57,117 nt of DNA, taken from an uncultured Planctomycetota bacterium (GTDB lineage Bacteria > Planctomycetota > UBA11346). Under the pieces are notes generated by a model. That model worked only from the letters and a program-made list of their open reading frames with translations, was not told where the DNA came from and searched no databases. Positions within the stretch are counted from its first letter, which is position 1, and each line of letters starts with the position of its first letter. The translations under genes and the position numbers were made by a program. The DNA lies in assembly GCA_903902515.1 (NCBI GenBank), contig CAIUVD010000253.1, positions 1 to 57,117 of the forward strand, given 5' to 3'. Positions 68-42,391 of the stretch are shown piece by piece.

Positions 68-709
68 TCAATACCTAAATAAAACTTTGTTGTTTCCCCC
101 GACAAATGTTACAGACATTCTGGAACGATGACGTACTTCCAGATCACCGATTGGCGGATTTACCCCAGTCCAAAACTCAGAAGAATCTGCCAGATACCCT
201 CTGGTATTCGGCTTAGAAACCTTCGATAACTTGAATTCGACGAAATTTTCACTCCCCATAGAGCCGCCAATTCGATTATGCAGGAGGTTTGAAACTCCAC
301 CATTCCCATAGGCCAAAAATGCGTTGATGCCAAATGAGTACGCCGGCGCACTTGAAGGATCATATGTAAATTCTGGACAGCCACCAATAACAGTCTTAGA
401 CATTGGAATGTTCGGAGCCAAACTAAGATAATCACCGATTAATGAAAACCAGTAGATATTTGATACTCGTGTAGCTGGGAGCCCGCCCCGGCTATCAAGT
501 GCATACGCATGACAGGAAAGAACCACTTGCCTTTGACTTCCAATGCATTGGGTGAATTTCGCTCCGGCTCGAATTGCCTCAATGGTTGGAAGAAGCAATC
601 CAACAAGCACAGCCACTATCACCATGACGATCAAGATTTCAATGATGGTAAATGCGCCGCGTGAATCCCGTTTAAACAAAGATTTTTGAGTGGTTTTTTC
701 GTTTTTCAT
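68..709 (-). CDS. Prepilin-type N-terminal cleavage/methylation domain protein (H-X9-DG family, motif degenerate)
   Basis: RGA|FTIIEILIVMVIVAVLVGLLLP type IV prepilin-like N-terminus, then CxxxQRQ, GLP and GCP motifs. The C-terminal H-RSRMSVTFV-GG has GG where the family has DG. Start taken at ATG 709; the ORF track starts at 760. Confidence 0.85.
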   Translation of the reverse strand: MKNEKTTQKSLFKRDSRGAFTIIEILIVMVIVAVLVGLLLPTIEAIRAGAKFTQCIGSQRQVVLSCHAYALDSRGGLPATRVSNIYWFSLIGDYLSLAPNIPMSKTVIGGCPEFTYDPSSAPAYSFGINAFLAYGNGGVSNLLHNRIGGSMGSENFVEFKLSKVSKPNTRGYLADSSEFWTGVNPPIGDLEVRHRSRMSVTFVGGNNKVLFRY

Positions 710-3800: not shown

Positions 3801-6364
3801 ACACCTGATGCGATGGCCAGCGTGGAAGTCACCCCACCCGTAACGACTTTGATTGCATAATCCATACCTGTCGTTGCCGTACCCGCCAACGAGACTCGCA
3901 CCGTAAGAGGAGACCTTAAAAAGATGCTGCTTCGAACGGCTAGCTCTCCCATAGCAGAGGGCGCCGGACCCTCCTTTGCCGTGCCCGATGACACCGCCAG
4001 GGAAAGAACGGGTTCATTGTCGGCAATTAAACCCGTCGCCGTAGAACGTGTGCTGTCGAGCACATATACGGCAAAGTCAGTATCCTTGATTCCGAGCACC
4101 ATGGATTCTGATGGCTCTACCACTCCATCGTCCATCGGCGAAACACGAAAGATAACCTCATTTTTATTAGCCGGAATGATCACCTGCGTAGGCGGAACAC
4201 CATAATCCGCCCCAACCGTTGCCGTACCCCCATCGATCTTCAGCTGGACCACAATGGCTCGATCCAGAGGACGACCATCGGGTCCATTATCGTAAGCGAC
4301 TTTAAAGACAATCGGGGCACCAGATTCACTCCCATCAGACACCTTGGCAATTCTTATGGCAGGCTTCACCTTGGGAGGAATCGGATACAGTAAGTTGTCG
4401 ATGTGGTTCGCGCCGCTCACGCGAAGGCGAGCATAGTCGATCACCTTCGGATCTTTGGTGATACTCGCCAGCATCGTCAATGCATCTCTCACATCCGATG
4501 GAACCGGACTAAAATCACCATTATACGGCCAGGGATTACCGTCAATGAACGGCATGAACCACTCGACCGCAACTTGAAGCGATCGACCATCGTCAAGCTT
4601 TAACTTATAAAGATCATCACCGTTGACACGCGCCAAAATCATCATTTGAACCATTGCATTAATGGTAAATGATGCGTATCCAGCTCCATCCGGTCGATCC
4701 AACTCTCTTGGCAAACGACCATCTGGTTGAATCTGCTTGCCAATACGCTCATTAATAAATCGGCTGATTATATCCCGCCTTTCTTCCATATCACCAACAT
4801 AGGCCGCGCCTGCAAATGCCTGCAAATCAAAAAGAACTCCGTGATTGTTATCGGCATTTTTTTCCTGGATGCCAAAATCGCTCGTATTCAGCCACTCAAG
4901 GTAGGATCTGAACCAAACACGCAAACCGATACGATCCTTCAGTGGAATACAGTTTTCTCGTTCAAGGAGAGCAACGGCACTCAACATAGACACAAAACCA
5001 CGAGCATCGATGATTCCGTAACGACTGCCACTGCCCTGCGTTCTACTATTCGGGATAAACTGGGCGTGCTGTAAATGCGGATTCATTCTCGTCGCGGGGT
5101 CGTTGAACCAAACGCGCAACTGCTTTACGGCAGCTTCCGCATATTTTGATTCACCGCCAAACCACCAGGCCATGACAAAGGTTTCGATCCGATCGGTCAT
5201 TTTCTTTAAACGTGGATAATCCGATTGATTGATCATAAACGTGTTTTGATCTCCATCACGATTCACCCACGCTTTTTCCGCATCGGAAGCTTGGGGCGGA
5301 TCTGATATGAATGGCCACGAGTATGTCGCAATACTCACATAGTTATGGGGATCTGCGCTGGGCGAAGGAACGTGGACGCCACCAGGTGTCATAAATCGAG
5401 ACTTGTGGGTAACGGCCACATCAGGTTCACTCAAGGCACTTGCGGCTTTTGCCAACAGGGCCCTGAGCGCCAGATCCGCTTCACCTTCAGTGCGGGTGCG
5501 AGTCCTCGTTGCCACGAGGGTGGTCAAGTCCCACGCCGCAACGGGTGCGACATTGAGCCTTACCATTTTTTCAGCAAACCGCTCACCTAGTTTTCGGGCG
5601 GAAATCGCATCGAAATGTACATCATCGGTATCAACTTTTCCGAAGCCACTTGAAGAAACCACCTCATAGTTTCTTATGCTTCCTACCATTCCTTGGAGAA
5701 CGGCATTAAAATTATTCGTCGGTATTTTCTGGAAATTAATGAACCATGCCAACTCACCCGCAATAACGGGAACCGAGGGGCTATCTAGATCATTTCTTAA
5801 TCTCGCAACAAGCTCAGTAAACTTGGCCGCATAGTCGACGGGCGTACCCCGATCTGTCTCTCCCTGATGCCAAAGAATGCCCTTTAAGACACCGCGCTTA
5901 AGCGCTTCCTTAGCACGCACCATCGCATCATCATAGGGACGCGTTCTGCCGGAGGCACCCACGAGTGGATGTGTTTTTCCTGGCTCCCAACTCAGTATCG
6001 AAGAACCACCGACAGCACACGGAATGAGTCCAATGCGAATCCCTGGATCTGCGTCAGCCAGAAGCTTTCCAAAGGTGAGCCCTGGCCCTACCCCAGCTTC
6101 TGGACGATCAAAATGCAGCGGATCCTTGGCAAGCACCCATTCTTGCGCTTTGGAAAACATGAAAACTCGTGGGTGTGTTGTTGTGCTTTCGGCATCAAGA
6201 ACACCACGTCCCGACATATTGGACTGACCAAGCAAGAGATAGAGATGGAATTGAGGATCCACATCCTCCCCATGAGCCCATCCCTGGTGGAAAATTATTA
6301 GGGCCATTAGAGAGAAAACGAATCTTGATGTAATCTTGATAGCGCGATTGGCCAACGACGACAT
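857..6364 (-). CDS. Secreted multidomain enzyme: SGNH/SASA (CE6-like) acetylesterase + alginate-lyase-family (PL5/PL38-like) domain + about 9 Calx-beta-like repeats + CGxG C-terminal sorting signal
   Basis: Signal peptide; SGNH motifs GQSNM, GILWHQGE and DDVHF; lyase motifs HNYVSIATYSWP, RDG, MNPHLQHAQ, GIID and NNHG; repeats with D..EG.E...V.L..G.GY..G....G.V.I.DDE; tail GGGGCGSG-TM-RRRK. ATG 6364 follows AGGGGG. Confidence 0.88.
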   Translation of the reverse strand: MSSLANRAIKITSRFVFSLMALIIFHQGWAHGEDVDPQFHLYLLLGQSNMSGRGVLDAESTTTHPRVFMFSKAQEWVLAKDPLHFDRPEAGVGPGLTFGKLLADADPGIRIGLIPCAVGGSSILSWEPGKTHPLVGASGRTRPYDDAMVRAKEALKRGVLKGILWHQGETDRGTPVDYAAKFTELVARLRNDLDSPSVPVIAGELAWFINFQKIPTNNFNAVLQGMVGSIRNYEVVSSSGFGKVDTDDVHFDAISARKLGERFAEKMVRLNVAPVAAWDLTTLVATRTRTRTEGEADLALRALLAKAASALSEPDVAVTHKSRFMTPGGVHVPSPSADPHNYVSIATYSWPFISDPPQASDAEKAWVNRDGDQNTFMINQSDYPRLKKMTDRIETFVMAWWFGGESKYAEAAVKQLRVWFNDPATRMNPHLQHAQFIPNSRTQGSGSRYGIIDARGFVSMLSAVALLERENCIPLKDRIGLRVWFRSYLEWLNTSDFGIQEKNADNNHGVLFDLQAFAGAAYVGDMEERRDIISRFINERIGKQIQPDGRLPRELDRPDGAGYASFTINAMVQMMILARVNGDDLYKLKLDDGRSLQVAVEWFMPFIDGNPWPYNGDFSPVPSDVRDALTMLASITKDPKVIDYARLRVSGANHIDNLLYPIPPKVKPAIRIAKVSDGSESGAPIVFKVAYDNGPDGRPLDRAIVVQLKIDGGTATVGADYGVPPTQVIIPANKNEVIFRVSPMDDGVVEPSESMVLGIKDTDFAVYVLDSTRSTATGLIADNEPVLSLAVSSGTAKEGPAPSAMGELAVRSSIFLRSPLTVRVSLAGTATTGMDYAIKVVTGGVTSTLAIASGVGSFVIPASATNQVAKILVVPNDDSIGEGQETVTVTLMTGTGYGLGGESSGTVNIQDDEPVLNFTSSSSTASEDPTSPRIGEVIIGSNMAIKRPMTVHVAVSGTAVPGADYLLRVITGRETLSVVIASGVGSFVIPATAVQLNRLAVLQVTPLDDTEIESDESVLLSLNAGVGYWRGATSSGEITIEDNELILGFKSSSSMVSEDSDPPRVGELIIGSNTPVKRPVTLNFTVSGSAGIDADYQLKMVVGGVSSLVTVRSGSGSLSIPASATAQEVRLVVVPIDDAVGEPSEEVRVALVAGVGYAIGPRKIGTVTIQDNEPTLSFTSSAAIASESPVSPMVGELIIGSAGAIKHATTINFLVGGTASVDTDYALSVIVGGASSSVLITSGTGSLVIPPTVTQLSRLAVLRLTPIHDAIAEPHEFMTVTLNSGEGYTVGPLNSGTVTIQEDSEPTISFLSPTSAVSEAPVTSSLGELMIGIGTAVKESLILNVMVAGTATIDVDYILSVEVGGVTSPVVTSRGVGSLEIPESATSQKVRLLVTALNDDIAEGEEVVQVTLAAGTGYMIGSADSGTVTIHDDEPTLSLISSRAIASEDPLSPKVGELAVVSDHFLTQPVTVALRVEGSATLDVDYVLTTEIDGMRASFIAPLGVGALVFPPSVTSKEVKLMVTPIDDLLGEGEESVTVILMAGAGYVVGGTTSGTVSIHDDEPTLQFTSSSFTIDEDSVSAGGGELVIGSDRVIKRPIVVAMAVAGTATFEVDYILEVVAGGEVTPAVATSGVLTFSIPAKESGLDHVARLRVIPVDDRLREGSEIVTVMLTIGEGYALGAQSSGEVGILDDEMGVSVTTSIRSLNEPSSTAVVTVTGPKKTTYKISASGTATAGDDYSGLPVSVTLPDSESEMSSISFIVAVVNDGIHEEDESIRIDVTGEMRGASVDLTISDQVADSDGRLLADGGGGCGSGVGLAMILTGVFIGFRRRKSQ
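975..4363 (-). repeat. About nine tandem Calx-beta-like protein repeats (about 130 aa each) within the large enzyme gene
   Basis: Units end in ADNE, QDDE, EDNE, QDNE, QEDSE, HDDE, HDDE, LDDE and ISDQ. Each contains a GTAT.G.DY-like motif. Confidence 0.85.
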
Positions 6365-6858
6365 AAAACCCCCTAGACTCAAAGAAAATGACCGAAATGA
6401 TCGGTTATTGGTTGTTTGATTTCGCCCGCGATGTCATCGGCTATTTATATTAACTTGAAATCCCATTTCCTAGTCATTTATAAGCAGGTCTATGCCATTA
6501 ATGACCATCTTCACATTGGAATTATTTTTGTTATCCTTAGATGATGTTGTGCCGTTTCCCTCTCTATAAGGTCATTTCCCAGACTCTTGTCGTAGTCTGG
6601 AACCCAGATCATTACGAATGACGCTTTTGAACGCCACGATGAGGATCTCAACCTCTTCGACTTCACGACCTGATATCATTCGCTGATGGCCATTTTCGAA
6701 CACCTGGAGCCCGAAAAAATCCAACGATGAACCATGAAGGGCTCTCATTTCCCTCGTATTCAAGCCGCCTGAGGGCGCCAAGCCCGCGCATCCCCCTTCG
6801 GTACATCGCCGCGATTATTTTTGCGGTAAAATACCCTGACCACTTATGGCATCAACCT

Positions 6859-21753: not shown

Positions 21754-24700
21754 ATGACTTCTCCCCATTGCGCCCCCTGGTCGAACCTCCTTCTGCGGCT
21801 GGTGGCCGGGCTGTTGCCCTGGCTCGTGCTATCCTCGCAGTCGCACGCGGCGACCGGTCAGCCGGATTATGCTCAAGCCATTACCGTTAATGACGATGGG
21901 ACGCTTACCTACGTTCCCAATCCGCGCGGGGACATGGTTCCGGATTTCTCGGCGGTAGGGTGGCGAAATGGGGATCAACCACTGCCCGGCCAACCCGGCG
22001 GCATCACCGTGCCGGTGGTCGTGACCCTGGACCCCGGCACGGGCGACCAGTCGAGCCGTATCCAGGCGGCCATCTGGCGGGTTGCCCAACTACCCCTGGA
22101 TGCGAACGGTTTCCGGGGGGCCATCCTCCTGAAAGCCGGGACCTGGGAGATCAATCGCACCCTTCTCATCGACCAATCGGGTATTGTTCTGCGGGGCGAA
22201 GGCCGGGACCCATCGGGGGTCCATACGCACCTCATCGCCACGATGATCACCAATGACGGCTATACCGGCGTCAGCCAGGGTGGATCCATGATCCGGGTCC
22301 GCGGCAACTTTGACGATACCCCGCGTTTCACCTCCGATGCCACCAGCATGGTGAATACCTCTCCCCAGACCTGGGACATTGTCGGCCGGGTGCCGGTGGG
22401 CGCGAAGTCCATCACGGTGTCATCTATTCCGACCCTCCAGGTCGGGGAGTTGGTCCGGATCCACCGGCCGGTGACCCAAAACTGGGTAGATGACGAGGGA
22501 CTGGCCTTCAACACCAGCGCCTACATCAGCGCCGGCCAAAACCAGGTGGCCCATCGTCGGGTCGTCAGCGTTGACGGGACCACGATCCACCTCAATGCAC
22601 CCATCACGTTGGCCATCGATCCGACGTATGGGGGCGGCAAGGTCCTCAAGGTGACCGCGGAGGGGTACATCCGTAACGTGGGCATCGAAAATCTCTACGC
22701 GACATCGGCTTACGCCAACCCCATGGACCAGAACCATGCCTGGAATGTGGTGGCCATGGAGCGTACCGAAGACAGTTACGTCCAGGACGTCACCGCCCGC
22801 TATTTTGGCTATGCGCTCTGCTACATCACCACGACGGCCCGCCAGATCAGCGTCGAACGGTGCCAGATGATCGATCCAGTATCCTGGGTTACCAATGGCA
22901 TGCATGAGAGTGGCCGCCGGATCCAGGATGCGGGGGGTAACCGCTATGCGTACTTGAATAATGGTGAACTGACCCTGGTCCGCGACAGCTACTCCCGCCA
23001 CTCGCGCCATGAGTTCCCGACCAGCTGGTTCCTGTCGGCCGGCCCAGCGGCGTTTGTGGACTGTCTGGGGGAAAACGGCCACAACGAATCCGGGGCCCAT
23101 ATTTATTGGACCACGGGCACGCTGTGGGACAACGTCCGGATGGAAAGCCTGCAGAACAAGCGGGAACGTCCGACGGGCAATAATGTCATCTGGAACTGCG
23201 TCCTCTACGGCGGGCCGAACATCGTTGAAAACGCCGTGACCGCGGTGAATTGGGCCTTCGGTTCGACCACCGCCAGCGGCGGGGCGGTCACCTTTTCGGC
23301 CTCCAATCCCCCCGGTGGCGTGCCAAGGAATCAGGGCGGTGAGATCTTCTCGAACGGCACCCGGATGAGCGTCCGCAGCCTGCACGATGCTCAGGTGGCA
23401 GCGCGACGGCTGGCCCAGGGCCTGACCTACACCCCCCGCACCACCCACCAGCGACCGGCCTTGGTTCCGATCCTTCCCACCATCACACCCTACGATGCGA
23501 CCGGCAAGGTCGGCACGGCGTTTTCCTATGCCGTTAAGGCCGATCCCATGCCGATCCGACTCAGCGGGGGCACCTACTACACCGCCACGGGACTTCCGCC
23601 CGGCCTCAGTATCACCACCGGGAATAATAAGACCTACGGCTACATCACCGGCACCCCAACCACCTCAGGCGACTACACCGTGACCCTGGTGGCCATCAAT
23701 CAGGACGGAAGTTCGACGCCAACGCCGGTCACGTTCACGATCCTATCGAGCACCGATAGCACCACCTTCCCCTTGAGTCTGAGCCTGCGGGCGGACTACC
23801 CGGATGGGTTCCGTTACGACACCATGGTCGTGACCCCCATGACGGCCAACTACGACCGCAACGGAGATCTCGATTTCACCAATAATGTCGATCCAGCCCT
23901 CGATGAGACGGGGGTGGTCGTGCCGGTGACGGTGGTGGCCTCCCACCAGTTCCCCGCCCTGCGCATCCCGATCACGGTGACCTACAATGGCTCCGCCACC
24001 CTGCCCACGGACCCCGGTTCCTACACCGTGACCGCCACGTCGACCAACCCCCTCTATCCGGGCACGGTGACGGACACGTTGATCATCAAAACTCCAGGAT
24101 CGATCTCCCTGGGTAATCTCACCAGGACGTACAACGGCTCCGCCCAAGCCCCCAGCGTCACCACCACGCCCGCAGGGTTGACGGTCGATCTCGTCTATGA
24201 AACGCCCGACGGCCCGACCACCACCGCCCCGACGCTTCCGGGCGCCTACACCGTCCGGGGCAGCATCCGGGACCCGGCCTACGCGGGAAGGACCACCTCC
24301 AATTCCACGGATTTGCGGCTGTTCGTCATCAACAAAGGCAGTGCCACCATCACTCTGGGGTCCCTGAGCCAGACATGGAATGGCTCCGCCCGTACACCGA
24401 TCGCTACCACCGTTCCTGCAGGCCTGACGGTCACCTATGCCTTCACCAAAGACGGGGTGCCGGCGGCGGCCATTGAACCCGGCACTTATGCCGTGACGGC
24501 CACCATCGATTCCCCCCTCTACGCCGGCACCCGCACTGGCACCCTGACCATCGCCAAGGCCCCTGCCACCATCACCCTCGGTAACCTGACCCAGGCCTAT
24601 GCCGGCAGTGATCTCGTTCCGACGGTGACCACTGTTCCCCCAGGCTTGGCGGTCGTGATGTCGTATAACGGTGGGGCTCTGACGACAGTTCAGCTTCCCG

Positions 24701-27540
24701 GAACCTACTCCGCCACCGCCACGATTAATGACCCCCACTACCAGGGCGCCAACTCCTCCCCGTTCACCATCACCAAGATGACCGGCCAAGTGCTGCTGGA
24801 AACGGCCGACCTGGCCCAGACCTATGATGGAACACCCCGAGTGGTCAGGACGACCACCATCCCGCCAGGATTGGCGGTGGTCCTTCGCTATAATAGTGCT
24901 GAAAACGTCACCAATGCAGGCACCTACGCGGTAAGCGCGACCCTCAACGACCCCCTGTACCAAGGCACGTCGACCCCGGCGAACCTCGTGGTGGCCAAGT
25001 TACCCACCACCATCACCCTCGACGATCTGGCTCAGGATTTCACGGGCGGTCTGCGACCCGTGACCACCTCGACCATCCCCTCGGGTCAAACGGTGGTCGT
25101 CACCTATGATGGACGTTCGACGGTGCCCTCGGCCGTCGGCGTTTATGCCGTCAGCGCCACCGTCAACACCACCAATCACTTGGGGACTGCCACCGGGAGC
25201 CTGATGGTGCGGCCGGTGATCACCACCATCAGCAATCTGTTCGGCAGCGTCGGCCAAGCCTTCACGGCCACCATCACCGCCACCGGCAGTCCAACAGCCT
25301 TCGGCGCGAGTTCCCTGCCCAGCTGGCTGACCGTGAACCCGAGCACGGGAGCCCTGACCGGCACCCCGACCACCGCCGCGTCGGTGACCATCACCCTCAC
25401 GGCCAGCCGCACCACCACCGGGGGCACCGCCACCGGCTCCAAGGAGGTGACCATCAGCGTCCTGCCGAGTGGCCAGCAGATGACCTGGCCGACGCCTGGG
25501 GCGGTGCCCTACGGGACGCTCCTCGGGTCTTCCCAGTTGAACGCCACCAGCACCGTGGCCGGTAGTTTCTCGTATGACCCGCCGGCGGGAACCCTGTTGC
25601 CGATCGGCAGTCAGACCCTGCGAACCACATTCACCCCCACGGACACCAGCACCTACAGCACGGTGCAGCAGACGGTGACCCTGACCGTGACCAAGGCGCC
25701 AGTGACCGTGACGGTGGCCAATGCCAGCCGGGTATATGGAGCCGCCAATCCGACCTTCACCACCAGTGTCAGCGGCCTCGTCGGGACGGATGCCCTGGCC
25801 AGTGTCACCCCCACGACCACGGCCATCGCGACCTCGGCAGCGGGCACCTACCCCATCACCGCTACCGCCCCGAGCCTGACCAGCGGTTCCGCCAGCAACT
25901 ACACGGTGACGGTCGTTCCAGGAATTCTGACCGTCAGTCCGGCACCGTTGACGATCCGGGCCGGGGATGCCACCCGGACCTACGGCAGCGCCAATCCCGT
26001 ATTCACCAGCACGGTCAATGGCTTGGTGGGCGCGGACACCATCAGCTCCGTTTCCATGACCACCTCAGCCGGGGCCAGCACGCCGATCGGCCCCGCCTCG
26101 ATTATCCCGGGGACCCCGACGTTCGCGGTTGGCCGGGCCAGCAACTACGCCATCACGGCTGAAAATGGCACGCTGACCATTACCGCCGCACCCCTCACCG
26201 TGTACCTGGACCGTACCGTCTACCGGGTGCAGGGCGGATTGGATGCCACCATCAATCCCAAGGCCACCGGACTGCAGGGGTCTGACCGGCTGGCAGGAGC
26301 TGACATCGCCTATCCGGCCCAGGATGTGGCCGTGGGGTCCTATCCCTTGCCCCTCAGCAATGCCCGTCTCGCCGTCGGCTCCCTGGGCAATTACACCATC
26401 TCCTATTCGGCCGGCACCCTGGTGGTGGTGGATCCCCTGAGCGTCACCATCCCGGTGATCACCTGGGCTACCCCCTCAGCCGTCACCTACGGCTCCGTGC
26501 TGGGGACCTCCCAACTGAATGCCGTGGCGGATGCCGCGGGGACCATCACCTACGACCCCCCCCTGGGAGCCTTGCTGGGAGCGGGCACCCAAACCCTGGT
26601 CGCCACCTTCACCCCCGACAATCCCGCCCTGGTCGCTCCGGCGACCACTAGCGTGAGGCTGGAGGTGCTGCCCACCCCCCTGCAGATCACCGCCCTCGCC
26701 GCCAGCCGGGTGTACGGTGCCACGGATCCCGTCTTCACGGCTCGCCTCACGGGTCTTCAGGGAACAGATGCCGCCACCACGGCGGTCACGACCAGCACGG
26801 ATGCCAGCACTCCAGTGGGGCTCCAGGTCGGCAGCCTCACGCCGACGATCGTGCAGTTCACGGTCGGCAGCCTGAGCAACTACGCCCTGACCACGGTCCT
26901 GGGGGATCTCCAGATCACCCCGGCGAATCTGACGATCACCGCCCGGGATGCGACCCGCGTCGTCGGGACTGACAATCCGGAATTCCCCTGCCTGGTCACG
27001 GGACTAGTCAGCGGGGATACCCTCGAACCGATCCTGGCCACCACCACGGCGACGGTGGACTCGGTGGCGGGGGCCTATGCCCTCACCCCGTCGGAACCTC
27101 GTTTCCTCACGGGAAGCGCGGGAAACTACCGGATCACTCTGACCAACGGCCGCCTGGCCATCACGGAGGCGATGCCCGTAATCACCTCGGCCCTGGTCAC
27201 GGGCATCGTCGGCCAAGCCGTGCGACACCAGGTGGCCGTCTCGTCCACCACCCGGTGGTTCAGTGCCAGCGGATTGCCCGACGGACTGACCATCAGCTCC
27301 ACCGGGTTGATTGCGGGGATCCCCTCCACTGCAGGACTTTTCCTGGTGACGGTGGATGCCCAAAACCAAGCCGGCCGGGGCAGCGGCACGATTTCGATCC
27401 TGATCACCGAGGAGGCCTTCCCCGTTGGAACCAGCGAGGATTCCTCCAGCACCCCTGCCTCCTGCGGGTCCGGCACCGCTCTGGTGGGCTTGATCGGGCT
27501 GCTGGGCCTGGCCCTGACGGGCCGGCGGCGGCGCGGCTGA
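21754..27540 (+). CDS. Secreted beta-helix (pectin-lyase-fold-like) protein with putative-Ig and MBG-like repeats and CGxG C-terminal sorting signal
   Basis: Signal peptide; GDMVPDFSAVGW, IQAAI, GAILLKAG, GIVLRGEG, NVGIENL, GNRYAY and GTLWDNV; Ig repeats (ATGLPPGLSI...ITGTPT) and MBG-like repeats (YNGS...P...G.Y.V.AT; ASRVYGAANP.FT); tail ASCGSG-TM-RRRR. Confidence 0.82.
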   Translation: MTSPHCAPWSNLLLRLVAGLLPWLVLSSQSHAATGQPDYAQAITVNDDGTLTYVPNPRGDMVPDFSAVGWRNGDQPLPGQPGGITVPVVVTLDPGTGDQSSRIQAAIWRVAQLPLDANGFRGAILLKAGTWEINRTLLIDQSGIVLRGEGRDPSGVHTHLIATMITNDGYTGVSQGGSMIRVRGNFDDTPRFTSDATSMVNTSPQTWDIVGRVPVGAKSITVSSIPTLQVGELVRIHRPVTQNWVDDEGLAFNTSAYISAGQNQVAHRRVVSVDGTTIHLNAPITLAIDPTYGGGKVLKVTAEGYIRNVGIENLYATSAYANPMDQNHAWNVVAMERTEDSYVQDVTARYFGYALCYITTTARQISVERCQMIDPVSWVTNGMHESGRRIQDAGGNRYAYLNNGELTLVRDSYSRHSRHEFPTSWFLSAGPAAFVDCLGENGHNESGAHIYWTTGTLWDNVRMESLQNKRERPTGNNVIWNCVLYGGPNIVENAVTAVNWAFGSTTASGGAVTFSASNPPGGVPRNQGGEIFSNGTRMSVRSLHDAQVAARRLAQGLTYTPRTTHQRPALVPILPTITPYDATGKVGTAFSYAVKADPMPIRLSGGTYYTATGLPPGLSITTGNNKTYGYITGTPTTSGDYTVTLVAINQDGSSTPTPVTFTILSSTDSTTFPLSLSLRADYPDGFRYDTMVVTPMTANYDRNGDLDFTNNVDPALDETGVVVPVTVVASHQFPALRIPITVTYNGSATLPTDPGSYTVTATSTNPLYPGTVTDTLIIKTPGSISLGNLTRTYNGSAQAPSVTTTPAGLTVDLVYETPDGPTTTAPTLPGAYTVRGSIRDPAYAGRTTSNSTDLRLFVINKGSATITLGSLSQTWNGSARTPIATTVPAGLTVTYAFTKDGVPAAAIEPGTYAVTATIDSPLYAGTRTGTLTIAKAPATITLGNLTQAYAGSDLVPTVTTVPPGLAVVMSYNGGALTTVQLPGTYSATATINDPHYQGANSSPFTITKMTGQVLLETADLAQTYDGTPRVVRTTTIPPGLAVVLRYNSAENVTNAGTYAVSATLNDPLYQGTSTPANLVVAKLPTTITLDDLAQDFTGGLRPVTTSTIPSGQTVVVTYDGRSTVPSAVGVYAVSATVNTTNHLGTATGSLMVRPVITTISNLFGSVGQAFTATITATGSPTAFGASSLPSWLTVNPSTGALTGTPTTAASVTITLTASRTTTGGTATGSKEVTISVLPSGQQMTWPTPGAVPYGTLLGSSQLNATSTVAGSFSYDPPAGTLLPIGSQTLRTTFTPTDTSTYSTVQQTVTLTVTKAPVTVTVANASRVYGAANPTFTTSVSGLVGTDALASVTPTTTAIATSAAGTYPITATAPSLTSGSASNYTVTVVPGILTVSPAPLTIRAGDATRTYGSANPVFTSTVNGLVGADTISSVSMTTSAGASTPIGPASIIPGTPTFAVGRASNYAITAENGTLTITAAPLTVYLDRTVYRVQGGLDATINPKATGLQGSDRLAGADIAYPAQDVAVGSYPLPLSNARLAVGSLGNYTISYSAGTLVVVDPLSVTIPVITWATPSAVTYGSVLGTSQLNAVADAAGTITYDPPLGALLGAGTQTLVATFTPDNPALVAPATTSVRLEVLPTPLQITALAASRVYGATDPVFTARLTGLQGTDAATTAVTTSTDASTPVGLQVGSLTPTIVQFTVGSLSNYALTTVLGDLQITPANLTITARDATRVVGTDNPEFPCLVTGLVSGDTLEPILATTTATVDSVAGAYALTPSEPRFLTGSAGNYRITLTNGRLAITEAMPVITSALVTGIVGQAVRHQVAVSSTTRWFSASGLPDGLTISSTGLIAGIPSTAGLFLVTVDAQNQAGRGSGTISILITEEAFPVGTSEDSSSTPASCGSGTALVGLIGLLGLALTGRRRRG

Positions 27541-34208: not shown

Positions 34209-37200
34209 TTAGAGAACCCTCCGCCGGCGCCATGCGAGCAACGGAAGGACCAACCCGAAGAGCAGAGAGGCCAATCCATTTCCTGCCCCACAGGAACCGG
34301 ATGCAGAGTCGGGGACGACTTTGCCCTCTCGCGCGGCATCGAAGGTGAATCCCTGCTCGCGCATCACGGCACCAAAGGAGGTTTGGATCTTCACCTGGAC
34401 CGGGCCGGCAGCCTGCGTCGGAGTGACGCAGGTGCAGGTCTGCTCATCCACGAGGACCACCTGGGTTGCGGGAAGGTCACCAAAGGTGACCGAAGGCACG
34501 TCAACGAACTGGCCACCCGTGATGGTGACCATCGTTCCGCCTGTCGAAGGTCCGCTGGCAGGATGCAACGTTGTCAAAACAGGAGGACCGACGTAGCGAT
34601 AGCTCGCCGCCGCCTGAGCCGAACCCGTCGTTATCGTCACGGGCACAATGCCAGCCGTCCCAGCAGGCGTCCGGCATTGCACCGTGGCCGCATCAATCAC
34701 CACGACGTCCGTCGCAAGTGCCCCTCCAAAGCGCACCTCAGATGCTCCTGCCAACCCGGTGCCCACCACCGTCACGAGGGTTCCCCCCGCCGCGGCTCCC
34801 CGATCCGGTGATAGCTGGGTTACCGTAGGGCCTGGAGTCTCCTCGGCGACATACGCAAAACCATCAGCCTTGGTGAAGACCCCCTGGGTCGTGGTTAACG
34901 CCACATGCACTGCACCCGCAGCGTGAGCCGGCGCCGTGCACGTGAGCGAGGTTGCGCTCACGACCGTGACATTCGCCGCAGCAATCCCACCAAAAGTCAC
35001 CGCCGTGGTTCCGGTCAAATTGGCGCCCGTGATCGTGACCGTTGTGCCGCCAGATGCGCTGCCGCTGGCCGGACTCAACGATGAAATGGTCGGCGCTGCA
35101 TCAATGAACAATGACGCCGACTTCAGCATCTGTCGATCTCCGGCGACCAAGAAGAAGATTTTATACCAACCAGGATTCACGGGCACATCTTGGCTCCACA
35201 TGGATCCGATCTTTGGCAATCCACCATTGGCTGGGTCGCCTTGATATGCTCTGTAGAGTTTCATCCCACACACATTGCCGATGAGGTCGTTGAAGATATC
35301 CGGCTCCACATCCTGCGGCGATCCCAAATGGTTCAAAACATACTGACCTTGAACTTCGGCATTGAATGCGGTTGGCACAACAGGGACATAATCATAAATT
35401 TTATTGGGGGTAAGACGATTCACGGCGATTGGCATGTCGACAATTCTCGAAACGACCGGGGAGGTGCTCTGGGGCTCCTCCGTTATGATGTCTTCTTGCG
35501 ACTCGCTGTCGCCAAAGGACCCGAAACGCCCATCAATGGAGTTGTTAACAACCGATATTCCAGCCTCCGCATCAACATCCATGACTGCTCGTATGGTCGT
35601 GTTCCCCACGCGGAACTCGGAATCCGATATCCTAACGATAGGGAGAATTCCAGCCGTGGTATCCTTGCATTGAATGATGGACAGAAATCGCTTCGATCTT
35701 CCGGAATTCTGGGTGCATGAAATATTCATAGGCAACGGCGGATTGGGATCGTTGCCAAAATTGGTAGGCCTAACAAGGAATCCGGTAGTGGTTGATAATT
35801 CTATTGGCGACGACCCGAAAAATGCAATTTCCGCCGCATAAGGAACCACTCCGCGTGCAGCCGCCACAGAATATCCGTAACGATTATCTCCGGTTCTCGA
35901 CCACATTTTAGTTTTATCCGTGTGAAATCTTGCGGTCCAAGACTGCCGCTCTTCCTCGCTTTCCAAGTCGTCATAAATGACAATTAGGCCATCGTGCGTG
36001 TTAAGAATATGCCTATCAAATTTCTGTAATTTTTTATCGCCAAAATACAGTAATTTCTCCGCTTCAGTATATCTATTGTATAGCCATGCATTACCTAGGC
36101 GATAGCTATACTTGGCATCGCCTTTAACGTACGAAAGATTTCTTCCGGTGTAAAACCGTGCAATTCTTCCGTAGCTATCAGATCCAAATCCCTGGCCGCT
36201 TTCTCCGTCAATGACAATCCCATTATGGGCACGCGTTGACTTGTAGTCCCAGTATGAATGGGCGGCATTATCGTAATAGCCAACGGACCAGAATATCCTT
36301 TGATTTTTATATGCCAAGTTGAAGCAATTTTGGTTTGCGTGTGCATGGCTATACGCCCCAAACGGGCTCGACCTAAAAAAGAGAGCCAAATCACTCGAAC
36401 TCGTCAGGGCCCGAGTGTGCATGGTGACCTCGCCAATCTCAGGTGCGCATATCGCCTTCGGCAATTCACTTTCTTGCAGCATGGCCGGGAGAGGTTCATT
36501 GTTGATGTTCAATGCAATTTGCTGCATGCCGCTTAGCCACTGCCCCCTCTTCCGGACAAGCTCGCCAGCATAAGAATCACCATTGGAGTAAAACACAAAA
36601 TCAGCCAGCTTATCTCCGGTCGATCCAATTCTTTCATGCATGTCTCCAAATCCATTCGACAATGACGACGGATACGAGTTATAAAGAAGATACTTCGCTG
36701 TGTTTCTAAACCATGGAGTCCCCGATAAATCTGCCCCCAACGACTTTAAGTGAACGGCAATGTCAACCAATCCAATTGCTTCGAGTCCAAAATAACCGAG
36801 ACCTTGGGACCACCCACCGCCATTGCCGCTCGATGTGGGAGCTCTCGCCAAATAGACCCCTACCGAGTATTCAAAGCATTTTTTCATGTATTCCGGATTC
36901 TTGTTTTTCAGTGCCATTGCAACCATCATCAAGCACGATAGCTCCGTTTGCCAAAAGTGATTATCCGCCATCACCGCCTCACGATTATTGGGCCATGCAT
37001 TATACGCACCCTGGATCCAGTTTGTCATATAATTTTCATACCGCGCTCGCTCTTCGTCGCTCGATTCGTTGTAGGATGCGTCATACAATTCAGCCATAAC
37101 GGAAATTGTAAGACCGAGCACAAATCCACCAATAACGTTGGTGCCCGTCCCATTGCCGATATTCTTTTCGACCTCAGCCATTCTCCTCTTGGCCTCGTCC

Positions 37201-37865
37201 ATGTATTTTTGGTCGCCGCTCGCCAAATATCCGTAGATAAGCTCCCTGATTTTCCATGGTTGCTCTCCTGTGCCGGTAACCGGAGAGGCCATCGCTCTAT
37301 CTGCAGCTTCCGTAACTTTATTTTTAGAAGCAACCATTGAAGATGCGCGATTTCTAAAATCAGACAATGATGATCCCCAGGTGGAGAGAAATGGCTTTTC
37401 GTCGGGGATGTTTTCAAACAAGGCTCCAGGATTAATCTCTGGATACTCTACGGTTTTCTCCGTTATCCTAAAGGGAATCGTTTGACCAGTGACCACCGTC
37501 CCGTTCGCCGAAATGACCTTTAATCGCCAAAACCACGTCCCTCTTTGGAGCCTTATGTCTGGAACATAAAATGCATGCCGCGTGACACTCGAGTTCAGAG
37601 TGATCTCGGTAAAGCTTGGATCCTGAGAAACCTCCACTTGGTACCGCGCGCCAAGTGTGCGTGGCCACAAAAAGGCCGGCGGATTACGTGCCGATTCGTC
37701 ATTTAATCCGGGAGACATTCCCGTGCGCCAAACGAGATGATAAACCGCGTCAGGACGTTCAACTGCTTCAGAAAGACCGCTCAAGATCGTTACCGACGCC
37801 AAAAAGACGAGGGATGCGACAAGTCGCCCACTCGCGATCGTAAGAAGAAAAATACGACTAAACAT
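34209..37865 (-). CDS. Secreted DUF4962/heparinase II-III-like polysaccharide lyase (PL15-like) with three IPT/TIG domains and CGxG C-terminal sorting signal
   Basis: Signal peptide; NPPAFLWP, DNHFWQ, GGWSQGLGY, GFGD, FRSSPFGAYSHAHANQN and TRAHNGI; three PT...L.P..G...GGT.VT..G IPT repeats; tail GSCGAG-TM-RRRR. Confidence 0.88.
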   Translation of the reverse strand: MFSRIFLLTIASGRLVASLVFLASVTILSGLSEAVERPDAVYHLVWRTGMSPGLNDESARNPPAFLWPRTLGARYQVEVSQDPSFTEITLNSSVTRHAFYVPDIRLQRGTWFWRLKVISANGTVVTGQTIPFRITEKTVEYPEINPGALFENIPDEKPFLSTWGSSLSDFRNRASSMVASKNKVTEAADRAMASPVTGTGEQPWKIRELIYGYLASGDQKYMDEAKRRMAEVEKNIGNGTGTNVIGGFVLGLTISVMAELYDASYNESSDEERARYENYMTNWIQGAYNAWPNNREAVMADNHFWQTELSCLMMVAMALKNKNPEYMKKCFEYSVGVYLARAPTSSGNGGGWSQGLGYFGLEAIGLVDIAVHLKSLGADLSGTPWFRNTAKYLLYNSYPSSLSNGFGDMHERIGSTGDKLADFVFYSNGDSYAGELVRKRGQWLSGMQQIALNINNEPLPAMLQESELPKAICAPEIGEVTMHTRALTSSSDLALFFRSSPFGAYSHAHANQNCFNLAYKNQRIFWSVGYYDNAAHSYWDYKSTRAHNGIVIDGESGQGFGSDSYGRIARFYTGRNLSYVKGDAKYSYRLGNAWLYNRYTEAEKLLYFGDKKLQKFDRHILNTHDGLIVIYDDLESEEERQSWTARFHTDKTKMWSRTGDNRYGYSVAAARGVVPYAAEIAFFGSSPIELSTTTGFLVRPTNFGNDPNPPLPMNISCTQNSGRSKRFLSIIQCKDTTAGILPIVRISDSEFRVGNTTIRAVMDVDAEAGISVVNNSIDGRFGSFGDSESQEDIITEEPQSTSPVVSRIVDMPIAVNRLTPNKIYDYVPVVPTAFNAEVQGQYVLNHLGSPQDVEPDIFNDLIGNVCGMKLYRAYQGDPANGGLPKIGSMWSQDVPVNPGWYKIFFLVAGDRQMLKSASLFIDAAPTISSLSPASGSASGGTTVTITGANLTGTTAVTFGGIAAANVTVVSATSLTCTAPAHAAGAVHVALTTTQGVFTKADGFAYVAEETPGPTVTQLSPDRGAAAGGTLVTVVGTGLAGASEVRFGGALATDVVVIDAATVQCRTPAGTAGIVPVTITTGSAQAAASYRYVGPPVLTTLHPASGPSTGGTMVTITGGQFVDVPSVTFGDLPATQVVLVDEQTCTCVTPTQAAGPVQVKIQTSFGAVMREQGFTFDAAREGKVVPDSASGSCGAGNGLASLLFGLVLPLLAWRRRRVL

Positions 37866-38912
37866 GATGAAGCTTCTCCTGGGTGAGCCCCGGTAAGCGG
37901 TGTAAGGTTGCCGATGGATTCACGGATGATGAGTCATGGTTTCGCAATGACGGCGAGGATCGGCACGTCGGGAAGCCTCTGTCCCTGACGTGCCGAGACG
38001 GCAGCCAGCAAGGGCTTCGGCGTCATTTCCATTTGCGGTAAATGTGCCATAGCCGACGATCGAAACCGCTGTTGTTTGAGTCAGCAAGGTTCCATAAAAT
38101 TCACCGAGCGCAGCATTCGGCACAGACCACACATGGGCTGTCAGGCTTGCGATACGCACGGGAATACCTCCAGAGAAAGTAACGTTCACTTCGCTTTGTT
38201 TACGCGAGACAGCAGGCCATTACGCTCGAAAATCGCCTGCTGGTGACCTGATCAGGCTATAGGAGGGGGCATTAATGATCTCATCGAAGTGTTGTGCAAT
38301 TTACCTGCATACCCCCCAAGCACCCTCGCTTTCAACGATGCCGAACGTGGGAACCTGGCGGTGCAGATAGCGCAGGCGGAACCTGACGATTGAGACGCCG
38401 CTCCTCATCCCCATGTCGCGCAGCAACCGTGCCGGACGTGATCCATGACGATCGGGCGAGGAACGCCTCGTTCATCTTGAGGCTTGAGCTATTTTGCACG
38501 ATCACTGGCCGAGATCGGGTGGCCAGATAGTCCTCTTGTGCCAAGTGCGGATCGGCGGCTCCAGAAGCAAACAAGAGGCTCTGTCCGGCCGATTCCACGG
38601 AACTCTACGCGGCGTGCTTGCGTCAGATACCGAGCGGTCCACCCCACGCTGACGCTCCAGGCTGCAGGGGTGGATGGGAGGCTCACTTCACGTCACGGCA
38701 TTCTGTTTTTCGCACGTCGCTGCAGAGATGCACCGCGACGGAGCCCAACCAGGCTGGCGAAGGGGATTAAGCAGGAGTGAACTCGCCAAGACATCGTCTC
38801 AGGGGCAAATGCCTTCATGGGGCTGGGCTCTCCGTGGACGTCATCGAGTGCCCCCACGGACCAAACAACAATGCCGTGTGCTCAGGTTCGGCATGTATTC
38901 ATAGGAGGAATC

Positions 38913-39596
38913 GTGTCGGTACGGATCTTGGTGATTCTTCTCATGATGACTCACCTCCTCGCGGTGGATGTCCAATTGATCGTCGGCGGGATGCCGTCGT
39001 CAGGATCAGCGACATATACCTGGAGTGTGCTGTCCTTTCCCGATGGGGGGACCCCACCAATCCTGGCAACGACGACCACAACGACGGGCACCAATCGAGC
39101 GACCTTCGATCCGTCGGCACTTCCCGGCACCTACTGGTTTCAAGCCTCCATTCAGGATCGTTTTCCCAATCCCGTCCTAGCGCGCACGGCGGTTCAGGTG
39201 TCCAGACCACAGCAAACATCCTTTCCTGGGGGCGGGTCTCAGGTGATGACCTACCAGCCTTCGGCAATCCCGGATCTGGATCCAGGCGCAACGACCACGG
39301 CACCAGGGATGCGAGTCGTCTACCGTATTAAGGAAGGGACGGCGGCGGTGCTCGTCGGTCAGCGTCTTCGGCCGGTGGGGAGCGGGGCCGTGGTCGTTGA
39401 GGCGGATGTGGAGGACCATAGCCCCGTGCGGTACCGCGCTCATCCCGCGCATAAAACCTTTATCTTTACTGCTCAAGCCAATGACCGCATTGGGGATCTA
39501 GATAGCGATAAAGGCACTGGTGGGTGTGGTAGTGGCATGGGCGTCATGCTCCTGTTCGCCCTCCTGAGTCTCGTCCGCGTAAGGAGATCTCTGTGA
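38913..39596 (+). CDS. Small secreted Ig/PKD-like protein with CGxG C-terminal sorting signal and no catalytic domain
   Basis: AGGAGG at 38903-38908 before GTG 38913; 17-aa signal peptide; ATYTWSV...PGTYWFQASIQD; tail GGCGSG-TM-RVRRSL. Confidence 0.8.
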   Translation: MSVRILVILLMMTHLLAVDVQLIVGGMPSSGSATYTWSVLSFPDGGTPPILATTTTTTGTNRATFDPSALPGTYWFQASIQDRFPNPVLARTAVQVSRPQQTSFPGGGSQVMTYQPSAIPDLDPGATTTAPGMRVVYRIKEGTAAVLVGQRLRPVGSGAVVVEADVEDHSPVRYRAHPAHKTFIFTAQANDRIGDLDSDKGTGGCGSGMGVMLLFALLSLVRVRRSL

Positions 39597-42391
39597 ATGT
39601 CCGATATTGGGCGATCGCCCTGTGGTACGTGGTCATCCCAGGTTTTCTCTCGGCCGTTGAGGTTCCGGCGATCTCAAGCCTGCCTGGTCATCCACGCCTG
39701 CTCATGAGCACCGCCCAGCTGCAATCGATCAAGAATGGACCTTCGGATGAACTCCGGAACCAACTGAAGGCATACCTGTATGCCCTGGCGGATGCTGCGA
39801 CGGAGACCGATATCCAGACCTATTCGCAGATTACGTCACGATTTTCGGCGCAATTTCCTTCGCCATCAGAATCGGAACTGCGGGAGCAGGGGCTGCGGAC
39901 AGCACGGCGCGTTCAAGGTCTTCTCCTCACGTGGGCAATGGCGTCACGTATTGCCGAAGTGGTGGATAATGACCGGGTGAAAAGCGAGCGCTGGGCACGG
40001 CGTGCCATCCGTCAAATGGCGACGGTCTCATCTGCCAATTTTCAGTGGGATCCTGCTCGAGACGCCGTGCTCCCGGGAAGGGCAGATCCTTTGAATGGTC
40101 AATTTCTCAATGTCGCTGAAATGGCGTTGGGAGTCTCCATTGCCTATGACTGGTTATGGCATCGCGGTACCTGGTGGGTGATCAATGGCGTTGATCAGCG
40201 ACCGCTCGTCCGCCAAGCCTTGTATGACAAGGCACTTCGTTGGGGGGCCGATGCCTACGGCGATGCCCCATCCAGCTATACGACATTTTGGGTCAATGGT
40301 GCCTACAACTGGACTCAAGTTTGTAATGCTGGCCTTCTTGCGGCCGCCCTGGCCCTCGCTGGGGATTCCGTGGCGTCGGGCCCAAACCAGAGTGCCCTCA
40401 ATATGGAGATTCAACGGGTTATCGATGGCGCTTGCCGGTCCTTGGAGTCGTCCCAGTCCATGTACCAACCTGCCGGCGTCTACCCCGAGGGGCTAGGTTA
40501 TTGGGCCTATGGCACGGTCTACCAGGTGTTGGCCATCGGGATGCTCGAAAGCACTCTTGGATCCACCTCCACATTCGCCACCGAGCGTGTTCAACCCCTG
40601 TGGAATAGTCCTGGGTTCCAAAAGACGGCGGCCTATCGCATGGCGATGATTGGTCCCACGGGTAATCCATTTACCTACTCCGACACGGGATTTGTCCAAA
40701 GCGCCACGACCCGAACGGACGGGCCCAGTTTGCCCCTCATTTGGCTCGGCCTGCGTTTCAACGACCTGCATATTCAAAACTATCACCGGACATGCTTGGA
40801 TAATGATCTGCCAAAAACGGCCACATCGACCATCGATGATGGGACGTTCTTCGGATTCTATGCCTATCCCCTCCTGTACTTGTGGATGCCTCCGTCAGCG
40901 AACACCGATCCTCTGCGTGACCTTACCTTCAAGGATGATTATTTCCCAGGAAGGCCCCTTGGGAATCGTGGCACCAATGCCGTGGAATTGGCGATTTTCC
41001 GAAACCAGCCCACGCAAACGGATGATTGGTGGGTTGCCATGAAGGGCGGTGCGAGTGGTAATAATCACAGTCACCATGATCTCGGGTCATTCAGCATGGA
41101 TTTCCAGGGCGTGCGATGGGCAGAGGATTTGGGCGCCGATGATTACGGACTCCCCGGCTACGGCGATGACCACCATGGAGGGTCACGATGGGAGTACCTG
41201 TTATGCGGAACGCAGGGACATAACACCCTGTCCCCGGGTGGCATGCAGCAGCACCTGGTGGCGTTGGCCCCCATCACCCTGTTCAGTTCCACCGCGACCA
41301 GCGCCAAGGCGGTGGTAGACTTGACGGCGTTGTACCCGGGAATGGGACACCGGATCATGCGCGGGGTGGAAATGGTGGATGCACGACAGCAAGTGCTCCT
41401 CCAGGACGATGTCCAGGCCCTGCCGGCCGGGGTTCCGTTGCTGTGGCGCATGATGACCAAAGCTTCGATTGTCGTTGAGTCCGGGAATCCGAGGAACCTC
41501 ATTTTGACGCGCTCATTAGAGGGCGTTCCTCGCACTTTGCGTTTGGAGGTGCTGCACCCTGGGAATGCGGAGGTCTCGATCCAGGCCGTCGATAGCCTGC
41601 AAAATGGTTCGGTGGCATTTCCTGGGTACTCACGCATTACGGTGCGGGTGCCTCCCAGCTCTGCGCCGGTCGACCGTCAAATCCTGGTGCGTTTCCGGGC
41701 GTCTGATCGTTCGGCATTCAACGTGGGGTCGGCGCCTCGAAACCCGGTGTGGAATTGGACGGCGGAATCAGCATCCCCGTTGATGCCGCCCACGCTCACG
41801 ATTCCGACCAGCGTGGCGGTTTCCCCCGGGTCTTCCTGGAGCTTCGTACTGACGGGCACGGCAAAGCCGTGGACAACGCTCCGCGTTACGAATCGACCGT
41901 CCTGGCTCGTCCTTGATGAGGTGGCAGGCCGGCTTTACGGGGAGGTGCCAACGGATTTTGCAGCCAAGGTAACCATGAACGTCCAGGCCACGAACAGCGC
42001 CGGCAGTTGTTCTGCCAGTCTCACCATGGCTCCCGCGGCTCGGGTTCTTGCCGTACTGATTTCCGACACGCTGACATTCACACGTGGTTCGGCTATCACA
42101 TCATTTTCAGGATCATCAACGGTGAGCTTGGTCCAGGCATCAAGTCTCCAATCTTCCTGGTATGAACGTCCCTTCTCGATTCGTGCATGGGGACTTCCGC
42201 CAGGGGTGACAATGAAGCCGTGGCTGGCCGTTGGTGGCACCCCGACGCAAGCGGGTCGTTATGATGTTCAGATTGAGGCGCAGCACGTCTTCGGCGTCGT
42301 TCGTGGCACCGTGACGATGATCGTCCAGGACACGGCCCGCGCTGATCAGCCCACTCTCTCGGCCACGCCGTCCTCTTTGGACTTGCCGTAA
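39593..42391 (+). CDS. Secreted heparinase II/III-like polysaccharide lyase with putative-Ig domains and no C-terminal anchor
   Basis: Signal peptide; HPRLL, FLNVAEM, AYDWL, NWTQVCNAG, YPEGLGYWAYG, MKGG...HSHHDLGSF, WAEDLG and HNTL. GTGA overlap with the upstream gene. Confidence 0.88.
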   Translation: MNVRYWAIALWYVVIPGFLSAVEVPAISSLPGHPRLLMSTAQLQSIKNGPSDELRNQLKAYLYALADAATETDIQTYSQITSRFSAQFPSPSESELREQGLRTARRVQGLLLTWAMASRIAEVVDNDRVKSERWARRAIRQMATVSSANFQWDPARDAVLPGRADPLNGQFLNVAEMALGVSIAYDWLWHRGTWWVINGVDQRPLVRQALYDKALRWGADAYGDAPSSYTTFWVNGAYNWTQVCNAGLLAAALALAGDSVASGPNQSALNMEIQRVIDGACRSLESSQSMYQPAGVYPEGLGYWAYGTVYQVLAIGMLESTLGSTSTFATERVQPLWNSPGFQKTAAYRMAMIGPTGNPFTYSDTGFVQSATTRTDGPSLPLIWLGLRFNDLHIQNYHRTCLDNDLPKTATSTIDDGTFFGFYAYPLLYLWMPPSANTDPLRDLTFKDDYFPGRPLGNRGTNAVELAIFRNQPTQTDDWWVAMKGGASGNNHSHHDLGSFSMDFQGVRWAEDLGADDYGLPGYGDDHHGGSRWEYLLCGTQGHNTLSPGGMQQHLVALAPITLFSSTATSAKAVVDLTALYPGMGHRIMRGVEMVDARQQVLLQDDVQALPAGVPLLWRMMTKASIVVESGNPRNLILTRSLEGVPRTLRLEVLHPGNAEVSIQAVDSLQNGSVAFPGYSRITVRVPPSSAPVDRQILVRFRASDRSAFNVGSAPRNPVWNWTAESASPLMPPTLTIPTSVAVSPGSSWSFVLTGTAKPWTTLRVTNRPSWLVLDEVAGRLYGEVPTDFAAKVTMNVQATNSAGSCSASLTMAPAARVLAVLISDTLTFTRGSAITSFSGSSTVSLVQASSLQSSWYERPFSIRAWGLPPGVTMKPWLAVGGTPTQAGRYDVQIEAQHVFGVVRGTVTMIVQDTARADQPTLSATPSSLDLP

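Follow-up and report, generated by a model that had tools for sequence, protein, structure and literature searches.

This locus raises the question of how a polysaccharide lyase without an anchor of its own could be held at the cell surface. It lies in a stretch of 57,117 nucleotides (the window), which is contig C253 of the genome of an uncultured Planctomycetota bacterium (G000, 91% complete). Sequencing runs matching the window were labelled as lake or freshwater metagenomes. Two overlapping genes are concerned, an adaptor gene and a lyase gene. The adaptor begins with a PKD-type domain without its first strands (the socket), and the lyase ends in a short tail (the plug). Our answer is that the tail probably completes the headless PKD domain of the adaptor by donor-strand complementation, tethering such enzymes to proteins with a CGxG anchor either directly or via intermediate proteins (shafts). 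Binding and physical insertion of the tail strand are what we infer.

The features of the two genes are as follows, with lengths in amino acids (aa) and Ig standing for immunoglobulin:

38903..38908, forward strand: Shine-Dalgarno sequence AGGAGG of the adaptor gene, read from the sequence, with a GTG start at 38913.
38913..38963, forward strand: predicted signal peptide of the adaptor (aa 1–17), with a hydrophobic core (mean hydropathy 2.8 over 10 aa) and a cleavage site placed by alignment.
38964..39203, forward strand: socket of the adaptor, a K319L-type PKD domain without its first (A/A') strands, from a model, structural alignment and a profile.
39207..39470, forward strand: one Ig-like stalk domain of the adaptor, homologous to the first stalk domain of the shaft genes on contigs C134 and C91.
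39519..39596, forward strand: CGxG C-terminal sorting tail (Gly-rich, Cys, hydrophobic helix, Arg cluster) and stop, from the sequence; 16.6 bits with Synerg-CTERM, below the curated cut-off of 22.5 bits.
39593..39655, forward strand: enzyme start (GTGA overlap) and predicted signal peptide, from sequence and hydropathy.
39656..41773, forward strand: predicted heparinase II/III-like polysaccharide lyase body (the payload), from PF07940 at aa 468–631 and the paralogues on contigs C49, C91 and C134.
41786..42328, forward strand: two He_PIG-type Ig domains (spacer), from PF05345 (E value 3.4e-7) at aa 733–811, the second from the paralogue alignment.
42344..42391, forward strand: plug, the enzyme's C-terminal tail DQPTLSATPSSLDLP and stop, a candidate A/A' donor strand of a PKD domain, from paralogue conservation and the match of the tail family to the starts of intact PKD domains.

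The adaptor open reading frame (ORF; 38913–39596) encodes 227 aa. A hydrophobic leader runs to ...HLLA, the mature protein starts with VDVQLIVGG, and the C-terminus consists of GGCGSG, a hydrophobic stretch and RVRRSL. The initial annotation had described a gene with a strong ribosome binding site, a signal peptide, a CGxG tail and no catalytic domain; all of this was seen in the sequence, and the protein had no match in Pfam. Its second, Ig-like domain (aa 99–186) looked complete. In BLASTP, the adaptor matched the C134 shaft (49% over 153 aa) and the C91 shaft (47% over 155 aa), and in a tree it fell among the shaft heads. From these comparisons the adaptor reads as a socket, one stalk domain and an anchor, a short form in which a shaft head is joined straight onto an anchor tail. 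The window pair would therefore need no third gene. Ends of the CGxG type (Cys motif, hydrophobic helix, Arg cluster) were found in the adaptor and in about 20 other ORFs of G000; the adaptor tail matched none of the other CTERM models.

The enzyme (39593–42391) comprises 932 aa, has no CGxG tail and ends in ...SATPSSLDLP-stop. Hepar_II_III_C (PF07940) was found after a long N-terminal region (E value 1.4e-8; 35 bits, cut-off 24), and two PF05345 stretches in the C91 paralogue backed the second Ig domain. The TGA of the adaptor overlaps the enzyme start in GTGA (39593–39596), the coupling reported initially, and the enzyme has its own Shine-Dalgarno sequence (AAGGAG, 39581–39586). The three other large lyase-like ORFs of the window (857..6382, 21754..27540 and 34209..37865) each end in CGxG, a hydrophobic stretch and an Arg cluster, which agrees with the earlier remark that only this lyase lacks such an end.

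A trivial explanation would be that a recent nonsense or frameshift mutation truncated the enzyme, or that the locus was misassembled. This was ruled out and has next to no probability left. The paralogues on C49, C91 and C134, 44–58% identical to the window enzyme, stop at the same column, in LNLP-stop or LDLP-stop. Contigs of six runs across the locus showed no joints. The adaptor/enzyme junction was bridged by contigs of runs X1, X5 and X8 (three studies), and the enzyme stop by X1 and X2 (study P1, possibly the source) and X5 (P2). X8 and X9 also covered the stop unchanged, with less than 31 letters on one side. A fused enzyme-adaptor form was absent among 13 matches of 512–1631 aa, the size range covered. 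Of the checks proposed initially, the one for misassembly excluded it by means of these contigs, and the search for one-polypeptide homologues returned no fusion in this size range.

The tail was better conserved than its surroundings. Among the four lyase paralogues, identity was 68% in the last 10 aa, 22% in the 10 aa before and 40–42% in the Ig domains. The two strain differences located in the tail were both silent; the linker ahead of it had three, two of which changed a residue. The higher identity and the silent differences suggest that the tail is under selection, more so than the linker.

The arrangement is not restricted to the window. The initial annotation had proposed a single anchor/enzyme pair; what emerged is a family-level system with a third part, the shaft, and with unlinked payloads. 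In G000, 10 ORFs ended in such tails and nine headless domains were found, at five socket-bearing loci. As nine of the ten tails were encoded at loci with headless domains, the pairing of the two is not due to chance. Three types of genes were distinguished. Payloads carry the tail only. Shafts consist of a leader, a headless domain, one or two Ig domains and a tail. Anchors (142–157 aa in this genome) consist of a leader, a headless domain and the CGxG tail. The order was shaft, anchor, lyase on C134 and C91, and payload, shaft, anchor on C287 and C69. The window holds a two-gene set (adaptor, lyase), and C49 a lone lyase without a linked anchor. Every socket directly followed a signal-like leader, and every tail ended in proline and stop. 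The payloads of the system as a whole were of unrelated kinds: lyases, beta-helix proteins, an esterase, and BNR-repeat and M12 peptidase proteins. Metagenomic shafts (P0002, P0005 and P0069) had the same ends and three, three and one stalk domains, respectively. The motif P..[LIV].[LVI]P-stop was found in 12 of 35,133 ORFs, nine of them system proteins; this strict motif and the tail profiles were built from these same proteins, which makes their strong matches circular.

The type of domain and the position of the cut were derived from profiles, models and structural alignments. The socket family profile matched KIAA0319L chains (E value 3.5e-12). The anchor of the related genome G059 passed the PF22352 cut-off at model positions 12–78, and passing relatives started at positions 12–14. 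Similarity to the K319L-like PKD domain (PF22352) was present for strands B–G, and A/A' were absent from the same chain. The AlphaFold2 model of the window socket (mean predicted local distance difference test, pLDDT, 93.5) contained five strands of three or more residues. It aligned to solved PKD domains only from about 15–20 residues in: to 2yrl at 22..95 of 102 (Z 7.7, root mean square deviation 2.3, 73 aligned) and to AAVR PKD1 at 324..399, and Z was also 7.7 for 7kpn. A Z of 7.7 lies within the range common to Ig folds, which tells against reading much into the score; the aligned range is weightier. The best feature matches in the ESM Atlas were K319L-like PKD clusters (0.87), which is a lead only. 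On these data, the headless domains are assigned to the K319L-type PKD domains. The earlier suggestion of an Ig/PKD-like first domain without its first strand is hence borne out by profile, model and structural alignment alike. Against 1.84 billion representatives, the best 150 matches of the socket profile were all long repeat proteins; these stand for intact domains and give no range for the split forms.

The sockets started at positions 25–28 of a 106-position model of 39 intact family domains in 13 of 13 cases. In 294 intact domains of unrelated repeat proteins, the commonest offset of the proline in the motif [LIVT]x[LIV]P relative to the socket start was -1 (13 of 37 occurrences), as in NQPPVANAGANQTITLP/TNSVTL, where the slash marks the boundary. 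The relative G023 has the unsplit form ASASPSGLTLP/TSSTTL. Socket starts, motif offset and this unsplit form together indicate that the last residue of the tail is the one directly preceding the socket start. This fixes the point at which the domain is split.

Whether the tails resemble the missing strand was assessed against the segments preceding intact domains. In a gapped test, 11 of 12 tails scored above the 95% quantile of 500 ORF tails of the genome, and eight of the 12 did better than shuffled versions of themselves (0.05 or less). An ungapped profile test was weak for the window tail and most of its clade, and the gapped test was run afterwards. The claim that the tail resembles the missing strand stands for the tail family, which matches the starts of intact PKD domains; the window's own tail has diverged.

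Several further points weigh against strand complementation. As many as 23% of its own shuffles scored as high as the window tail, which ranked only 1450th of 9396 ORF tails against the ungapped profile of intact domains. It is taken as strand A because of its relatives and not because of its own score: the link to the family is the A-x-P-x-x-L-x-L-P end, together with intermediates such as VSASPSVLVLP-stop. LxLP was present in a minority of the intact domains (15 of 294). The tail searches used a 21-position profile and were insensitive. The socket was modelled confidently on its own, and the model gave no sign of instability. Finally, in the relative G011 (91% complete) the socket-like protein has a different C-terminal domain, and the tail searches found no tail in this genome. 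A complex prediction of the socket with a 35-residue tail scored 0.10 (mark: 0.32) and was counted neither way, as the controls did not fold. A single-sequence fold of the C69 shaft, considered for self-insertion, was unusable (pLDDT 47.5).

Socket profiles were run on 41 relatives and on all 48 family genomes; the returned loci and 21 fetched regions, picked mainly for their short frames, were inspected. Most family genomes were 60–90% complete, and related genomes are not independent cases. Split sockets were found in G004, G007, G059 and G011. G004, of the same genus as G000, has a shaft, an anchor and then an M12 peptidase with a tail. G059 has two anchors; one of its contigs (C109) repeats the order of the window, anchor then payload, the payload being a predicted beta-propeller. 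Both halves occurred in four genomes of three genera (G000 and three others), two of the latter with tails unlinked to anchors. A tail profile built without them found three long proteins in the socket-bearing genomes G007 and G059, ending in NQPPAIQSVTATPSTVTLP, NQAPAIVVPAAAAPATVVLP and NQPPTISGVSASPSVLVLP, each followed by a stop. They end in NQPP...LP-stop or NQAP...LP-stop and lie on contigs without sockets nearby. New matches of this profile numbered 10: these three, one more that reached a stop, in a frame of 57 aa, and six that did not. That the new tails came from socket-bearing genomes is what a split domain predicts. A widened tail profile returned 15 weak matches in 13 other family genomes; six were intact PKD starts and none was at a stop. 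Across the phylum (401 genomes), the tail profile had no match in the 377 genomes outside the family at an E value of 0.01, at low sensitivity. A genome scan with the G007 socket gave 19 loci including L108, which is identical to the G007 anchor. Of the other 18, the 12 that scored with the socket profile were intact domains, and six did not score. Of two metagenome scans, one gave no locus and the other a single partial match, to the stalk domain.

These data bear on a different reading, in which a tail derived from a PKD strand serves on its own as a signal for export or processing, recognised by another machine, and the headless domains fold alone or as homodimers without binding it. We consider this unlikely. 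It would account for the invariant terminal proline on unrelated payloads, for payloads unlinked to anchors (C49, G007:C3, G007:C63 and G059:C93), for the confident model of the lone socket and for the G011 protein without a tail. It would not explain why the tail stops at the very residue preceding the socket start, why shafts carry both halves, or why terminal tails were confined to socket-bearing genomes (four of the 48 family genomes). Moreover, the small anchors (138–157 aa) are socket and CGxG tail only and would have no evident job without a partner.

The two halves also appear to diverge together. All eight tails with N-x-x-P occurred with sockets keeping D-D or D-x-D (seven of seven), and all eight tails without it occurred with a long-branch clade of seven sockets, in six of which the Asp pair is missing. 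This pairing is one split on the tree and not a set of independent cases; G000 holds both classes. By analogy with cadherin-like domains, the N-x-x-P and Asp motifs may come together at the same end of the unsplit domain, possibly around calcium. In a tree of 15 split and 39 intact domains, based on few columns, the split label needed three changes, compared with 13 in shuffles. The tree is compatible with one origin of the split, and does not prove it.

Gene fission, the alternative named in the initial annotation (an ancestral gene split into two), has two sides. As an origin it is likely: the system most likely arose by the split of an ancestral gene, and was then kept and reused. It is no rival to tethering. 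A rival would be that the genes are non-interacting remnants of old enzyme-PKD-CTERM fissions, with the enzyme released into the medium. Some loci do decay: the C134 lyase paralogue (L001, G000:C134:4295-7103, reverse strand) is disrupted close to its start by an in-frame stop and by a frameshift, with the tail intact, and a transposase-like ORF (C134:8640-9902) lies just upstream of the C134 shaft gene. The varying gene order would fit remnants as well. However, the same cut would have been needed at both PKD domains of several loci, on unrelated proteins of three genera and with a new signal peptide each time, and the tail would have had to stay better conserved than the folded domains that precede it. 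We therefore regard simple remnants as very improbable.

Equally little speaks for a covalent product, in which the C-terminal proline of the tail is ligated to the new N-terminus of the socket after export, or the halves are rejoined during translation. The last residue of the tail and the first of the socket would indeed be neighbours in the completed domain, and on C69 and C287 tail genes directly precede socket genes. Yet a signal-like leader stands between the halves in every case, and neither a conserved nucleophile nor a conserved neighbouring enzyme was seen. Readthrough or frameshifting as a general route was rejected, because leaders intervene and gene order varies: the opposite order is found in the window, on C134 and C91, in G004 and on G059:C109, and there are unlinked payloads as well. 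Joining of either kind is most improbable.

With donor-strand complementation as the preferred reading, the following sequence of events is proposed. Each part would be exported by Sec, judging from the signal-like leaders. The socket would leave open a groove where strands A/A' are missing, to be filled by the C-terminal tail from either a payload or a shaft. Arranged as payload, shaft and anchor, the parts would restore the one-chain layout enzyme-PKD-Ig(n)-PKD-CTERM of ordinary CGxG proteins. The CGxG anchor of the adaptor would hold the lyase at the cell surface, and by analogy with myxosortase a protease of the CPBP family may process the CGxG tail. G000 has three CPBP (PF02517) genes; the same family is present in 11 of 14 control genomes.

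With a socket and a tail each, shafts could, speculatively, also polymerise, with payloads as caps and anchors as bases. The extended version of this idea is a chaperone-free modular display fibre, in which head-to-tail polymers of shafts connect a CTERM anchor with any enzyme that bears the 17-residue tag, and the two diverged classes of plug and socket within one cell serve as orthogonal channels. We hold this extension to be possible, though on balance doubtful. No conserved chaperone-like neighbour was found among six loci; C91 and C134 have two downstream genes in common (G000:C91:78610-81837 and C134:284-3454; homologous, 38% identity).

Some side observations were made in the relatives. 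Secreted proteins of genera g7 and g10 (L039:1780-5714, G011:C73; L051, G058:C686) end in a domain of ~50 residues with ...GHxWxxDP...H.L... and not in CGxG, possibly another C-terminal sorting domain. In G011, it comes after the headless PKD domain. A 904-aa frame (L045:2578-5289, G008:C8), directly before another secreted protein, ends in VVVPTPTAVTTTLP and stop and is perhaps a short variant of the tail; it got no score from the tail profile, and no socket was seen in G008. In G004 (L037:4172-5530, G004:C334), an M12-like metallopeptidase domain sits inside an otherwise intact PKD domain, after the third strand.

Within the window, the lyase genes (34000-42500 and 1-7500) lie in stretches of 44–61% G+C on a background of 65–74%. 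This lower G+C suggests acquired or specialised cassettes. Prepilin N-methylation proteins (68-760 and 6727-9658) flank the large alginate lyase/esterase gene (857-6382). On the reverse strand, a cluster of MoxR AAA ATPase, DUF58, DUF4350, DUF4129 and SpoIIM/RDD genes (42550-52495), a common module, converges on the lyase gene. A promoter and terminator scan was at chance level.

Among known systems, the initial annotation had pointed to chaperone-usher pili. In chaperone-usher pilins, the missing strand is the last (G) strand. Here the polarity is reversed, the donor being C-terminal and the missing strand the first; an N-terminal donor extension as in those pili is absent, as the mature chains start directly with the headless domain. 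Neither the usher (PF00577) nor the PapD-type chaperone (PF00345) had a match in G000 at its 91% completeness.

Chaperone-usher pili, the Elr/WxL pilus and the CPR Pam pili are alike in that each subunit lends a strand to the unfinished Ig-like fold of its neighbour, and in having a variable payload on a constant attachment module; the Elr pilus also has a base subunit tied to a C-terminal sorting signal (10.64898/2026.10.17.759780; PMC13278184). Elr and chaperone-usher pili use an N-terminal donor and a chaperone that primes the subunit, in contrast to the C-terminal donor and missing first strand found here (10.64898/2026.10.17.759780). Donor-strand assembly has been extended to WxL and CPR Pam pili, with other folds and chaperones (10.64898/2026.10.17.759780; PMC13278184). 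Type V pili (FimA/Mfa1) have a C-terminal donor strand, a likeness of position only, and tip, stalk and anchor roles (PMC13655056). As described there, however, their pilins are self-complementing lipoproteins that need a protease to take off a lipidated N-terminal anchor strand, and anchor and stalk carry donors and the tip does not (PMC13655056). In our system, the anchor has no donor but a C-terminal CGxG tail, the payload has a donor only, and one PKD domain of 80 residues forms the unit.

The closest solved case is the BppU-BppA joint of Lactococcus phage Tuc2009, in which a C-terminal extension of ~25 residues completes the beta-sheet of the partner's sandwich to give a composite Ig/titin-like domain (PMC4742702). 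That joint is a fixed part of the virion, with a beta-hairpin donor and a C-terminal acceptor domain (PMC4742702). Here, the acceptor is N-terminal and a PKD domain, export leaders and a membrane tail are present, and one type of tag occurs on many payloads. Cellulosomes and the proposed 'planctosome' are alike in that anchor-less enzymes with a docking tag are gathered on anchored adaptors, but cellulosome docking takes two folded domains (PMC6461901). Pfam scans of payloads, shafts and anchors detected neither cohesin nor dockerin, and a socket protein has a single socket.

The CGxG tail resembles the Cys-containing CTERM signals (MYXO-, Synerg-, JDVT- and CGP-CTERM) in its short Cys motif, hydrophobic helix and Arg cluster (10.1101/2023.06.07.544157). 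Myxosortases cleave such signals for surface display (10.1101/2023.06.07.544157; PMC11980579). The string 'planctomyce' is absent from the main text of the in silico CTERM paper (10.1101/2023.06.07.544157). No paper on a split PKD tag or a donor-strand PKD system was found in a search that left most subscription journals and bioRxiv supplements outside. We conclude that the system is real, conserved and undescribed in searchable papers, and that it is probably a variant of donor-strand complementation used for enzyme display.

It accounts for proteins that annotation would call truncated. As intact and split PKD forms stand side by side in the family, a repeat protein cut inside a domain, with its second half given a signal peptide, may be an origin of strand-complemented fibres. 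In SpyTag/SpyCatcher, a peptide strand and a protein without it rebuild a sandwich domain; that pair is engineered, of CnaB fold and joined by a covalent isopeptide bond, whereas the present pair is natural and likely non-covalent. The 80-residue domain and the 17-residue peptide could be a useful new tag/catcher pair. If the fibre exists, it would be a strand-complementation counterpart of the cellulosome, built on a natural minimal tag/catcher pair. If tethering is correct, exchangeable shafts would set the distance of the enzyme from the cell, and the system would be a third way to hold degradative enzymes at the bacterial surface, beside proteins with their own anchor and cohesin-dockerin scaffolds.

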